64,000 bases of DNA from contig JBBCGK010000001.1 of the NCBI GenBank assembly GCA_037200965.1, positions 64,001 to 128,000 of the forward strand, written 5' to 3'. The notes beneath the pieces are model-generated. The model was not told the origin of the DNA, did not search any database, and saw only the letters and a list, made by a program, of their open reading frames with translations. Made by a program: the position numbers and the translations under genes. Positions 15,358-18,210 of this stretch are shown here, one piece after another; positions within the stretch are counted from its first letter, which is position 1, and every line of letters starts with the position of its first letter. Origin of the DNA: a bacterium (lineage in GTDB: Bacteria; Patescibacteriota; Minisyncoccia; Phycocordibacterales; Phycocordibacteraceae).

Positions 15358-18210
15358 ATGGCAAAAAAAGGATACGATCATGCATCCATAGAGCGGAAAT
15401 GGCAGGAGCGGTGGAAAGAGCAGGACATCTATCGCACTTCCGAAGATCCGCAAAAGAAAAAAGCCTATGTGCTTGATATGTTCCCGTACCCTTCCGGAGA
15501 GGGGCTGCATGTCGGGCACCCGAAAGGATATATCGCGACCGACGTGTATTCTCGGCACATGCGCATGCGCGGAAGAAGCGTCCTTCATCCGATGGGATGG
15601 GATGCGTTCGGCCTTCCCGCTGAGAACTACGCCCTCAAGCACAAGGTGCACCCGAAGGTCGCGGTCGGGAAGAACATCGCGCGCTTCAAAGAGCAGCTCG
15701 CGAAAATCGGCTTCGACTACGACTGGTCCCGCGAGATCAACACGACCGATCCGAAATACTATAAGTGGACGCAGTGGATATTTCTGAAGCTCCTCGAGCA
15801 CGGGCTCGCATACCAGTCGAACGAGCCGATCAACTGGTGCCCGTCGTGCATGACGGGACTTGCGAACGAAGATCTCGACGGGAACGTGTGCGAGCGCTGC
15901 GGCACGCCGGTCGAAAAGAAAAAGCTTCCGCAATGGGTGCTTAAGATCACCGACTATGCCGACCGGCTCCTCGCCGATCTCGACGCGCTCTCCTGGCCCG
16001 AGCACATCAAGCAGGCGCAGCGCAACTGGATCGGCCGGAGCGAGGGACTCGTCTTCGCTTCACCGGTCAAGGATACGGATATGGTCCTCGAGACCTTCTC
16101 GGCACACTTCGAAGCCTTCAAGGCCGATACGTTCCTCGTTATCGCGCCTGACCATCCGCTTTTGCCGCAGCTCGTCGCAGGCCTGCCGGAAGAGAAGAAG
16201 GTTCTTGCCGAAGCCGGGAAAATGGTCGAGAAGCGGGAGGCCGCGGGCCTCGGGGGCGTTAAAGACATCGAAGGCGTCTTCACGGGAAGATACACCGTGG
16301 ATCCCGTGGGAAACGGGGAACTTCCGATATGGGTTGCAAGCTACGCGCTTGCCGACTACGGCACCGGCATCGTGAAGTGTTCCGCGCATGACGAGCGCGA
16401 CTTCGCGTTCGCAAAGAAATACGGCATTCCGCTCAAGGAAGTGCTCGAGCCGGTACATACGCAAACGGACAATTCGTCCGCGTTCCGGAAAGACGAGCCG
16501 TACGTCGACAACTACGGCGTGATCGTCGTGCTTAAGCACTGGGCCGAGGACAAGTATCTGGGCCTTCGCTGGAAGAACGCCCCTGACTGGGGAACCCTCC
16601 TCACCGGAGGCATCGACGAGGGCATGTCGCCCGAAGACACGGTGCTCAAGGAGATCCGGGAGGAAACGGGATATACGAGCGCGAAGATCGCCAAAAACCT
16701 CGGCAAAGTGCACGGCCGCTATTATCATGTCCCGAAGCAGCTTAACCGCTTCGGTCATACGCCAATGTTCCTCGTGGAGCTTCAAAACGGGGAGCGAAAC
16801 GAGATAAGCGAGGACGAGCAGGCCCGGCATGAACTCCTCTGGCTCACGAAAGACGAAATGCATTCCTTTCTGACCGCCGAGACGCATAAATACGCGTTCC
16901 GGAAAGCCACGGAGGACGTGTGCTGGACCGACATGCAAAACGGCATCCTGAACGCGCCGGAGGAATTCGCGGGAAAGATCGCCGCCGACTGCCGTGAAGC
17001 GATAGCGGACTATGCGGTACAAAACGGCCTTGCCCGCAGAAAGACCGTCTACAAAATCAAGGACTGGGTCTTTTCCCGCCAAAGGTACTGGGGGGAACCG
17101 ATCCCGATCGTGCATTGCGAGAAAGACGGCGCCGTTCCCGTGCCCTATGAGGACCTTCCCGTGCTTCTTCCGGAAGTGGAATCATACGAGCCGACCGGCA
17201 CCGGCGAGTCTCCGCTTGCCGCGATCACGGACTGGGTGAATACGCGCTGCCCGAAGTGCGGAGGTCCCGCAAAGCGCGAGACCAACACCATGCCGCAGTG
17301 GGCCGGATCCTCCTGGTATTACCTCCGCTATATGGATCCGCATGACGATACGCAGCTTGTTTCCACCAAGGATGAGAAGTATTGGGCGCCGGTCGACGTG
17401 TATGTGGGAGGCGACCATGCCGTTCGGCATCTCATCTATGCCCGCTTCTGGCACAAGTTCCTTTACGATACCGGCTTCGTCTCGACCGCGGAACCCTTCG
17501 CGCGGCTCGAGTTCCTGGGCTTCATTCTCGCCGAGGACGGACGAAAGATGAGCAAGCGATTGGGTAACGTCATCAACCCGGATGATGTCGTGGCCGAATA
17601 CGGAGCGGACGCGCTTCGTCTCTATACGCTTTTCATGGGGCCGTTTGAAAATACGACGAGCTGGAGCACGGGCTCCATCGCAGGTACGTCGCGCTTCATC
17701 GAGCGGATCATCAAGGCATCGGGCACGGTGCAGGAAGACCGGGTAGCAGCGTTGGATGCGCTCCTCCATCAAACCGTCAAAAAGGTCAGCGAGGATATCG
17801 AGGCGTTTAAATTCAACACGGCGGTCAGCCAGATGATGATTTTCATGAACGCGCTTGAGAAGGCCGGAAGCATTGGAAAAGGGCAATGGGGGGTATTCCT
17901 GCGCCTTCTTGCGCCGTTTGCGCCGCACGTGACCGAAGAGCTCTGGGAAACGCTTGGGGAGACGCCTTCGATACACCTCGCGCCGTGGCCCGAATACGAC
18001 CCCGCGCTCCTTATTGAAAGCGCGGTCGAGATCGTCGTGCAGGTAAACGGCAGGCGGAGGGGGTCGATAACGCTGAGTCCCGACGCTTCGGAGAGCGAAG
18101 CGTTTGAAATGGCTAAAGAGGTGCCCGCGGTCGTCGCGGCGCTTGGCGGAAAAGAGCCGGGAAGGGTCGTGTATGTTCCGGGTAAAATCCTTAATTTGGT
18201 GGCCGCTTGA
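15358..18210 (+). CDS. leuS: leucine--tRNA ligase with an inserted Nudix-hydrolase-like domain
   Basis: HVGH (HIGH) near the N-terminus, KMSKRLGN (KMSKS), conserved RDWVFSRQRYWGEPIP and GTGIVKCSAHDERDFAFAKKYGIPL blocks; about 150-aa insertion containing Nudix box GGIDEGMSPEDTVLKEIREETGY. Confidence 0.9.
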   Translation: MAKKGYDHASIERKWQERWKEQDIYRTSEDPQKKKAYVLDMFPYPSGEGLHVGHPKGYIATDVYSRHMRMRGRSVLHPMGWDAFGLPAENYALKHKVHPKVAVGKNIARFKEQLAKIGFDYDWSREINTTDPKYYKWTQWIFLKLLEHGLAYQSNEPINWCPSCMTGLANEDLDGNVCERCGTPVEKKKLPQWVLKITDYADRLLADLDALSWPEHIKQAQRNWIGRSEGLVFASPVKDTDMVLETFSAHFEAFKADTFLVIAPDHPLLPQLVAGLPEEKKVLAEAGKMVEKREAAGLGGVKDIEGVFTGRYTVDPVGNGELPIWVASYALADYGTGIVKCSAHDERDFAFAKKYGIPLKEVLEPVHTQTDNSSAFRKDEPYVDNYGVIVVLKHWAEDKYLGLRWKNAPDWGTLLTGGIDEGMSPEDTVLKEIREETGYTSAKIAKNLGKVHGRYYHVPKQLNRFGHTPMFLVELQNGERNEISEDEQARHELLWLTKDEMHSFLTAETHKYAFRKATEDVCWTDMQNGILNAPEEFAGKIAADCREAIADYAVQNGLARRKTVYKIKDWVFSRQRYWGEPIPIVHCEKDGAVPVPYEDLPVLLPEVESYEPTGTGESPLAAITDWVNTRCPKCGGPAKRETNTMPQWAGSSWYYLRYMDPHDDTQLVSTKDEKYWAPVDVYVGGDHAVRHLIYARFWHKFLYDTGFVSTAEPFARLEFLGFILAEDGRKMSKRLGNVINPDDVVAEYGADALRLYTLFMGPFENTTSWSTGSIAGTSRFIERIIKASGTVQEDRVAALDALLHQTVKKVSEDIEAFKFNTAVSQMMIFMNALEKAGSIGKGQWGVFLRLLAPFAPHVTEELWETLGETPSIHLAPWPEYDPALLIESAVEIVVQVNGRRRGSITLSPDASESEAFEMAKEVPAVVAALGGKEPGRVVYVPGKILNLVAA

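Follow-up and report, generated by a model that had tools for sequence, protein, structure and literature searches.

The window analyzed here is a 64-kb stretch of DNA (64,000 nucleotides, positions 64,001 to 128,000 of contig JBBCGK010000001.1, from a member of the Patescibacteriota), and its leuS gene encodes a bacterial-type leucyl-tRNA synthetase (LeuRS) that carries a Nudix-fold insert within its editing domain; no second leuS was found within the 64-kb window. The leuS open reading frame (ORF; nt 15358-18210, plus strand) is open and in frame throughout and codes for 950 amino acids (aa). Its product matched the bacterial LeuRS model TIGR00396 (leuS_bact) with 910.2 bits (cutoff, 548.4) and was matched over its full length by the T. 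thermophilus LeuRS 1h3n (E=4e-203). An AlphaFold2 (AF2) model of the entire protein, built from a 107-sequence alignment, reached a predicted local distance difference test score (pLDDT) of 92.2 and a predicted TM score (pTM) of 0.81, with pLDDT values of ~95 to 97 in the insert. The class I signatures HIGH and KMSKS are intact as HVGH and KMSKR, and the HIGH signature as well as K730, M731, S732, and K733 are invariant in the 107-sequence alignment. The leucine-specific domain is missing just before KMSKR, where T. thermophilus residues 581-637 are unmatched and only the tripeptide DGR is found (nt 17530-17560, residues ~726-734). This short stretch resembles the GKDG linker of the Mycoplasma mobile LeuRS, and both the B. 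subtilis and the M. mobile LeuRS have been reported to lack the leucine-specific domain (PMC3643597). The gene product would accordingly be expected to work as a leucyl-tRNA synthetase, a claim that belongs to the overall interpretation given below and shares its roughly even chance. An earlier reading of the letters alone (the sequence-only reading) had proposed a LeuRS with an inserted Nudix domain; TIGR00396, PF00293, AF2, and Foldseek all agree with this assignment, and every peptide it quoted was found where it had been placed.

The size and position of the insert were determined by comparison with related synthetases. Between anchor residues 362 and 566 the window LeuRS has 205 residues, compared with 63 in its insert-less close relatives, which amounts to a net insertion of 142 aa, and in the alignment with T. 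thermophilus LeuRS, window residues 364-534 face just residues 363-386. The sequence-only reading had estimated ~150 aa lying after CP1, between the conserved blocks GTGIVKCSAHDERDFAFAKKYGIPL (residues 335-359, nt 16360-16434) and DWVFSRQRYWGEPIP (residues 569-583). An insertion of about this length is indeed present, but it does not follow CP1. The match to PF13603 (116 bits, residues 222-383) breaks off ahead of the insert at profile position 157 of 185, and ~38 CP1 residues (529-566) come after it, among which G529 and L531 are at least 90% conserved. Thus, the insert sits inside the CP1 editing domain. The inserted segment matched PF00293 (NUDIX) at residues 405-511 with 38.4 bits (gathering cutoff, 21.1) and, when modeled alone, gave a pLDDT of 95.8 and a pTM of 0.90. 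Structure prediction of the insert had been named beforehand as a possible refutation, and what it produced was a Nudix fold. A Foldseek comparison of this model with the PDB yielded 548 matches at E≤1e-3, and 50 of the 50 matches listed were Nudix-fold entries (probability 1.00, target-normalised TM scores of 0.6 to 0.84, 14-24% identity). The top match was the MutT/Nudix protein 2azw, followed by the Aquifex Ap4A hydrolase 3i7u, with M. smegmatis MutT1, the Thermus Ap6A hydrolase Ndx1, NudB, RppH, and the lupin, Chlamydia, human, and M. tuberculosis hydrolases of dinucleoside polyphosphates (ApnA) among the further matches. On these models, the insert is a true Nudix fold nested near the C-terminal end of CP1. 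An intein or mobile element is an unlikely identity for it, as no intein-type junction residues were seen at the boundaries and the fold is that of Nudix.

The survey of related LeuRSs that the sequence-only reading had called for showed this architecture to be widespread. Among the 120 most similar LeuRSs, ~100 carry PF00293 at the same site and with the same junctions in separate assemblies, under the labels Patescibacteria, Paceibacteria, Minisyncoccia, Kaiserbacteria, Nomurabacteria, and Taylorbacteria. The databases already contain many such sequences with precomputed PF00293 matches, often named just "class I tRNA ligase family protein". Two insert-bearing LeuRS loci (L007 and L014) are found in metagenome-assembled genomes (MAGs) labeled Clostridia or Clostridium sp., which may represent either mis-binned contigs of the Candidate Phyla Radiation (CPR) or a wider spread of the architecture. 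All told, hundreds of CPR bacteria have this arrangement. When the insert was used as the query for an exhaustive HMMER search of 1.84 billion representative proteins (E≤1e-3), 345 clusters in total were returned, and because there are so few among so many representatives, the insert family can be regarded as a small, distinct Nudix subfamily. The best 150 of the 345 clusters comprise 100 LeuRSs (67 full-length and 33 fragments), 36 stand-alone proteins of ~150-200 aa, and 14 others; ten annotated proteins in this last group include three more LeuRS fragments, three tandem Nudix proteins, one Ser_hydrolase-Nudix fusion, and one ProRS (P0246). The ProRS, a class II synthetase (L084:2906-4837), hosts the subfamily module between its anticodon-binding and ProRS C-terminal domains, and ribosomal protein L15 and PRPP synthase are among its neighbors. 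It should be noted that a word-index search of 5.8 billion proteins with the insert alone found two stand-alone proteins and missed a LeuRS identical to that of the window, and its result was not taken as a sign of rarity. Some LeuRSs of related Patescibacteria have extra hydrolase domains at several insertion points (P0078, P0080, P0081, P0093, P0027, P0038, P0096, and P0107). These include a Ham1/ITPase domain ahead of CP1 (P0093), a HAD_2 phosphatase domain in the C-terminal half (P0078 and P0081), an alpha/beta Ser_hydrolase domain ahead of CP1 (P0027 and P0038), and as many as three Nudix domains in one protein (P0078 and P0080). P0107 has its Nudix domain ahead of CP1 and none at the site used in the window, where PF13603 runs uninterrupted over profile positions 1-184.

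The stand-alone members of the subfamily were found to be linked to leuS as well. The contigs of ten stand-alone clusters were looked up, nine of which were informative, while one contig was too short. In three of the nine informative clusters, leuS is the very next gene, which is far above chance given that only about one gene in several hundred is a leuS. At L001, the stand-alone protein P0001 is 47% identical to the window insert and its gene ends 2 nt ahead of leuS; the first 160 residues of the LeuRS encoded there are 74% identical to those of the window LeuRS, and the gene 5' of P0001 is 51% identical to ORF 14697-15338, which directly precedes leuS in the window. P0176 likewise ends 2 nt ahead of leuS in two different genomes (L092 and L093), both of which have a LeuRS without an internal Nudix domain. 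The YchF, membrane-protein, leuS synteny of the window is shared by L001 and L092, and the order at L092 (YchF, a membrane protein, further genes, Nudix, leuS) includes the separate Nudix gene ahead of leuS. P0141 ends 10 nt before the leuS N-terminus at L086. A longer array, all in one direction, is present at L085:2482-11389: MetRS, an unknown gene, TatD, the Nudix protein P0136 of the insert subfamily, two small ORFs, a YfbR-like HD nucleotidase, another unknown gene, a second Nudix protein (MutT-like, 145 aa), and, after 4 nt, a LeuRS of 823 aa that has no insert and a non-T-rich CP1 with the motif YDSVPQTF. At this locus, nucleotide hydrolase genes are thus interleaved with synthetase genes. 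Taken together, a separate Nudix gene abutting leuS alternates with a Nudix domain inside LeuRS, and such switching between operon and fusion is classically taken as a sign of functional linkage. We infer that the module serves LeuRS as a dedicated partner, rather than being a random passenger.

The module and its host have not traveled together, however. As a control, the N-terminal half of the LeuRS backbone was compared with the C-terminal half: their pairwise identities correlate with r=0.69, and 85% of the resolved triplets agree. For backbone and insert, r is 0.03 and -0.01, and agreement falls to 38-40% of the resolved triplets, compared with 33% expected at random. Vertical co-inheritance of insert and backbone was ruled out by this comparison. 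Insert identity follows the type of Nudix box described below: it is 0.54 within the type found in the window but drops to 0.31-0.39 across types. Backbone identity stays at 0.66-0.69 whatever the type. For example, P0013 has a backbone 79% identical to that of the window, yet its E..R-type insert is only 42% identical, and P0016 has a backbone that is 69% identical and an M..K-type insert that is 63% identical. The stand-alone genes are of the E..R type (17) or the Q type (6), and each is nearest to the inserts of its own type, while the hydrophobic..K type is essentially limited to LeuRS. Insert-less LeuRSs are nested among insert-bearing ones. Either cassettes have been swapped by recombination or paralogous copies have been differentially lost; the latter is conceivable because some relatives hold two or three Nudix domains, one of them ahead of CP1.

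The Nudix box of the window had been described in the sequence-only reading as near-canonical, which is too generous. Aligned from its C-terminal end, the box departs from the full consensus Gx5Ex7REUxEExGU, as M423 stands in place of the first Glu and K431 in place of the Arg, while the glutamates of REUxEE are all present (E432, E435, and E436). The full canonical box is kept in 49 of the 107 related inserts (~46%). The two deviant positions vary as a pair, with E..R in 49 sequences, a hydrophobic residue..K in 34 (including the M..K type of the window), and Q in the first position in 22 (mostly Q..A), and with few mixed combinations. The Glu/Arg pair of the Nudix box has a structural role, as is known from work on MutT, and we read its replacement in these proteins as the exchange of one interacting pair for another, a structural change that would spare the metal-binding glutamates. 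Conservation was also determined over 95 Nudix sequences, consisting of the inserts of 93 LeuRSs and two stand-alone relatives. G417, E432, E436, K460, and W495 are 100% conserved, and E435 (98%), E487 (97%), G422 (96%), and W405 (95%) are near-invariant; E432, E435, E436, E487, and K460 are kept, invariantly or nearly so, across all three box types. The invariance or near-invariance of E432/E435/E436, K460, and W495 suggests that the module is a catalytically active hydrolase. As for its substrate, ApnA hydrolases are marked by a Tyr ~17 residues past the Nudix box (PMC5389931). In the family, an F or Y occupies position 455, while of the 95 sequences 62 have Y and 29 have F at position 456, with the X-loop placement judged from sequence alone, and Y455/Y456 at +16/+17 would be consistent with an ApnA-type substrate without amounting to proof. 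ApnA hydrolases are also among the top 40 Foldseek matches (3i7u, 1vc8, 1f3y, 4mpo, 9cxx, and 4ijx), in which MutT-like proteins, MutT1, NudB, and RppH score similarly. ApnA-type nucleotides are our best guess for the substrate, and a tentative one. We know of no precedent among Nudix activities for the hydrolysis of an aminoacyl-adenylate or an aminoacyl ester.

The explanation that we favor is that LeuRS contains a second enzyme, a Nudix-type pyrophosphohydrolase housed in a CP1 surface loop close to the C-terminal end of that domain. This module would hydrolyze a nucleoside-polyphosphate that is either made at the synthetase or acts upon it, and the leading candidates would be dinucleoside polyphosphates of the Ap3A/Ap4A type, which arise as side products of adenylation. 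Taken as a whole, an active Nudix module working for or with LeuRS, with ApnA nucleotides as its leading candidate substrates, has in our judgment about an even chance of being correct. Several points weigh against it. The consensus box positions replaced in the window could lower or abolish catalysis, and fold likeness at 14-24% identity cannot tell substrates apart, as MutT1, NudB, and RppH resemble the insert about as well as the ApnA hydrolases do. LeuRS is not known to rank with the synthetases that make the most Ap4A. Five of the nine informative stand-alone clusters do not adjoin leuS (one is near ArgRS), and the syntenic leuS-adjacent cases may share one ancestral arrangement. Lastly, the Ham1, HAD, and alpha/beta domains in the LeuRSs of relatives would fit a generic house-cleaning passenger at least equally well.

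The passenger explanation is the most serious competitor. It holds that the module is an ordinary Nudix enzyme that cleans the nucleotide pool and has no mechanistic tie to leucylation, having been placed inside, or co-transcribed with, an essential protein that is made constitutively, so that its expression is secured in a very small, streamlined CPR genome, with the CP1 loop simply being permissive. On this view, the LeuRS of such reduced genomes may be a host that readily tolerates house-cleaning hydrolases. Besides the assorted hydrolase domains and the up to three Nudix domains found in relatives, the presence of the subfamily module in a ProRS and the grouping of Nudix with TatD and a YfbR-type nucleotidase at L085 fit this view. 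The uncoupled histories of insert and backbone are what would be expected without co-adapted interfaces, and the nesting of insert-less LeuRSs among insert-bearing ones implies that the module is dispensable for LeuRS function. The range of hosts is far narrower than this explanation would predict, however: among the best 150 clusters, the identified non-Nudix hosts are 100 LeuRSs, one ProRS, and one Ser_hydrolase fusion, and the stand-alone members repeatedly lie 2-10 nt 5' of leuS, whereas a pure expression-hitchhiker should be scattered across many essential genes. We consider a passenger to be a possible, if doubtful, explanation.

An improbable alternative is that the Nudix domain of the window lineage has lost its hydrolase activity through the E to M and R to K replacements and now serves to sense nucleotides, or else as an appendage of CP1 that has a structural role or binds tRNA or protein. 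Of the nine box positions that the consensus specifies, two are replaced, and Nudix-fold proteins without enzyme activity are known (PMC5389931). Furthermore, the hydrophobic..K type is nearly exclusive to LeuRS and shows the highest within-type conservation of the three (0.54 identity). Yet the retention of E432, E435, E436, E487, and K460 in all box types is hard to explain without catalysis or metal-nucleotide binding, and the replacement of Glu and Arg as a correlated pair suggests structural compensation instead of decay.

The CP1 domain that surrounds the insert is itself a variant. It lies at the bacterial insertion point and aligns with the CP1 of 1h3n, 4k47, 3o0a, and 2ajg. In place of the FTTRPDT of canonical LeuRS, which includes E. 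coli T247/T248/T252, the window protein has FSAHFEA, and in place of GTGA[IV]M.VPAHD it has GTGIV-KCSAHD, with a one-residue deletion; both canonical motifs are kept in all solved bacterial LeuRS editing domains. The sequence-only reading was right that the threonine-rich (T-rich) motif is unrecognizable, as it is absent, but the divergence is not confined to this entry motif and affects the whole of CP1. The 120 closest LeuRSs can be divided into 34 of this SAHFE type and 83 of the T-rich type, and identity between the two classes is 0.34 in CP1 vs 0.68 elsewhere in the protein. All 19 of the 19 class-discriminating positions are inside CP1. Within the SAHFE class, S248/A249/H250/E252/A253 are conserved at 91-100%, and H344 and D345, the latter being the equivalent of E. 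coli D345, are invariant in the 107-sequence alignment. Post-transfer editing requires this Asp, which in E. coli forms a salt bridge to the alpha-amino group of the mischarged amino acid (PMC3017609). The CP1 of the SAHFE class is better conserved than its catalytic core (0.73 vs 0.66, a ratio of 1.10), while the reverse is true of the T-rich class (0.65 vs 0.72, a ratio of 0.91). In a relative-rate test against 20 Firmicutes LeuRSs as the outgroup, the two classes were equally distant in the catalytic parts (56.2/55.1 and 51.3/51.7% identity), whereas in CP1 the SAHFE class gave 32.6% and the T-rich class 54.0%. Decay of CP1 was ruled out by its within-class conservation together with the relative-rate test, and a dead editing domain does not fit because the SAHFE-type CP1 is more constrained than the remaining protein. 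It would appear that CP1 either changed in a rapid burst or was replaced by a copy of distant origin, and subsequently came under strong constraint. The SAHFE-type CP1 is probably a rebuilt pocket with altered hydrolytic specificity or chemistry, rather than a domain that has lost its function.

The sequence-only reading had also raised the idea that the Nudix module stands in for editing lost with the T-rich motif. The two traits do occur together in the window protein, with the insert lying within the editing domain itself. However, among the 120 closest LeuRSs, 24 are of the SAHFE type with Nudix, 10 are of the SAHFE type without it, 79 are T-rich with Nudix, and 4 are T-rich without it, and since all four combinations occur, CP1 type and Nudix are independent. 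The 79 T-rich enzymes that have the module and the 10 SAHFE-type enzymes that do without it speak against compensation, and a CP1 that is more conserved than the catalytic core and keeps its essential Asp has not obviously lost editing. Such a substitution is therefore very improbable. The Nudix box types are similarly spread over both CP1 classes. Under the explanation that we favor, the remodeled SAHFE-type CP1 would be a separate feature, evolving independently of the Nudix module. Other CPR LeuRSs have first-wall variants of the editing pocket such as YDSVPQTF, DSIPQTF, and SAYPAWM. The non-T-rich CP1 sequences of L020, L023, L085, L092, P0099, and P0121 read ETFSAYPAWM...RCSGHD, EMYDSIPQTF...NCSYHD, and YNSVPQTY...NCSAHD. 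The second wall that they all share, C-S-x-H-D-E-R-D, hints at a larger clade in which editing pockets were rebuilt and the first wall is variable.

That the gene is an assembly chimera or a mis-called ORF is scarcely credible, as the reading frame is uninterrupted, composition and codon usage are uniform, an identical protein is public, and ~100 homologues have the same junctions. The identical protein (P0003) is encoded on a 960-kb contig of an NCBI MAG. The GC content of the insert is 0.576, compared with 0.58-0.59 for the remaining gene, and its GC content at third codon positions matches likewise; its codon usage has a cosine of 0.875, compared with 0.871 +/- 0.024 for control chunks of the gene. 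A chimera, which the sequence-only reading had listed as a concern, left no sign in these data, and a recent foreign acquisition was excluded on the same grounds, namely P0003, the ~100 homologues, and the homogeneous composition and codon usage.

Compared with the LeuRSs of T. thermophilus (1H3N) and E. coli (4AQ7/4ARC), the window protein shares the HIGH and KMSKS signatures, the Zn-binding module, the position of CP1, and the anticodon-binding and C-terminal domains. It differs from 1H3N-type enzymes in its replaced T-rich motif, its second wall, which is one residue shorter, and its absent leucine-specific domain, and whereas the solved LeuRS chains (822-880 aa) have no Nudix domain, the window LeuRS has one as a 142-aa nested insert. 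With the Aquifex 3I7U, Thermus Ndx1 (1VC8), human NUDT2 (4IJX), and RppH/NudH enzymes, the insert shares the alpha/beta/alpha fold and the REUxEE glutamates, and its aromatic residue or Tyr ~17 residues past the box may correspond to the ApnA-hydrolase marker. Unlike these hydrolases, to which it is 14-24% identical, it has the M423/K431 replacements and is a synthetase domain instead of a free protein. The M. mobile LeuRS, which has no CP1, also lacks the T-rich motif, but the window enzyme retains a full, constrained CP1 with the essential Asp. Human mitochondrial LeuRS has a degenerate editing site and, like the window enzyme, is missing the T-rich motif. The GNAT-containing IleRS (NCBIfam NF040702, ileS_w_GNAT) is likewise a class Ia synthetase that hosts an enzyme domain modifying small molecules, and differs from the window enzyme in its host, guest fold, and chemistry; in the window, the guest is nested in the editing domain. 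Full-text literature searches, whose coverage excluded most subscription journals, turned up neither a LeuRS-Nudix fusion nor an editing variant among CPR LeuRSs. Synthetases and tRNA are nowhere mentioned in the Nudix-clan review (PMC5389931), and a 2026 survey of domain insertions lists the LeuRS editing domain solely among the inserted modules and not once among the hosts (PMC13114784). The LeuRS and Nudix families are themselves well known, and what would be new here is the breadth of the architecture, the alternation between operon and fusion, and the rebuilt CP1.

Few enzymes have been studied as thoroughly as the aminoacyl-tRNA synthetases, among which LeuRS is a textbook example of proofreading. 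We know of no functional partnership between Nudix hydrolases and LeuRS, and here, across a large radiation of uncultivated bacteria, the LeuRS editing domain would house a whole second enzyme. Identifying its substrate would link tRNA charging to nucleotide or alarmone metabolism in minimal genomes, while the SAHFE-type CP1 provides a natural experiment in which an editing pocket was rebuilt while under selection. Both questions are directly testable with recombinant protein. A more ambitious proposal, which we put forward with little confidence as a whole, is that Nudix forms a third catalytic site acting in cis on an ApnA by-product, an alarmone, or an adenylate-mimicking inhibitor, and that it is an exchangeable cassette that has repeatedly changed its place among a gene 5' of leuS, the CP1 loop, and even ProRS. 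If this were true along with a neofunctionalized SAHFE-type CP1, CPR bacteria would have rebuilt the layer of synthetase quality control and by-product control in a manner unlike that of model organisms.

The features of the locus are collected in Table 1.

Table 1. Coordinates of leuS, its internal features, and two synteny markers within the 64-kb window.
Feature	Position (nt)	Strand	Basis
ychF (GTPase), synteny marker also present at L092	13022..14119	+	Pfam; 60% identity to the L092 YchF
Membrane-protein gene just 5' of leuS, synteny marker	14697..15338	+	51% identity to the L001 upstream ORF
leuS, bacterial-type LeuRS with nested Nudix	15358..18210	+	TIGR00396, 1h3n alignment, AF2
HIGH signature HVGH, residues 51-54, synthetic site	15508..15519	+	Invariant in 107 sequences
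CP1 N-terminal part, residues 223-365, SAHFE-type	16024..16452	+	PF13603 profile 1-157/185; class analysis
Replacement of the T-rich motif, ETFSAHFEAFKADT, residues 245-258 (canonical xVFTTRPDTxFGAT)	16090..16131	+	Alignments
Second wall of the editing pocket, GTGIVKCSAHDERD (canonical GTGA[IV]MAVPAHDxRD), one residue shorter, D345 kept	16360..16401	+	H344, D345 invariant
Nudix-fold insert, residues ~366-528	16453..16941	+	PF00293, AF2, Foldseek; absent from insert-less relatives
Variant Nudix box, GGIDEGMSPEDTVLKEIREETGY, residues 417-439	16606..16674	+	G417-x5-M423-x7-K431-E432-I-x-E435-E436-x-G438-Y439
Putative X-loop region: Y455-Y456 (+16/+17 past the box), invariant K460	16720..16737	+	Family alignment; marker of PMC5389931
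CP1 C-terminal remainder, residues 529-566, leading back into the catalytic core	16942..17055	+	Aligns to T. thermophilus 386-413
KMSKS signature KMSKR, residues 730-734	17545..17559	+	K730, M731, S732, K733 invariant

The genes surrounding leuS are of the housekeeping kind and include ychF, a gene for a sigma-70 region-4 protein, yceG, mnmA, and ATP synthase. The sigma-70 region-4 gene lies directly 3' of leuS (18247-19320, plus strand) and encodes 357 aa, with its sole Pfam match, to sigma-70 region 4, near the N-terminus. The sole tRNA gene of the window is a tRNA-Tyr (GTA) at 45746-45829 on the plus strand, and there is no tRNA-Leu gene near leuS. Upstream, ORF 11518-12423 (plus strand, 301 aa) has HTH_23/HTH_38 matches and a weak Terminase_5-like match, and may encode a transposase-like or phage-derived DNA-binding protein. 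Two further plus-strand ORFs, 19385-20740 (451 aa) and 9715-10191 (158 aa), have no Pfam match, which is typical of CPR genomes.

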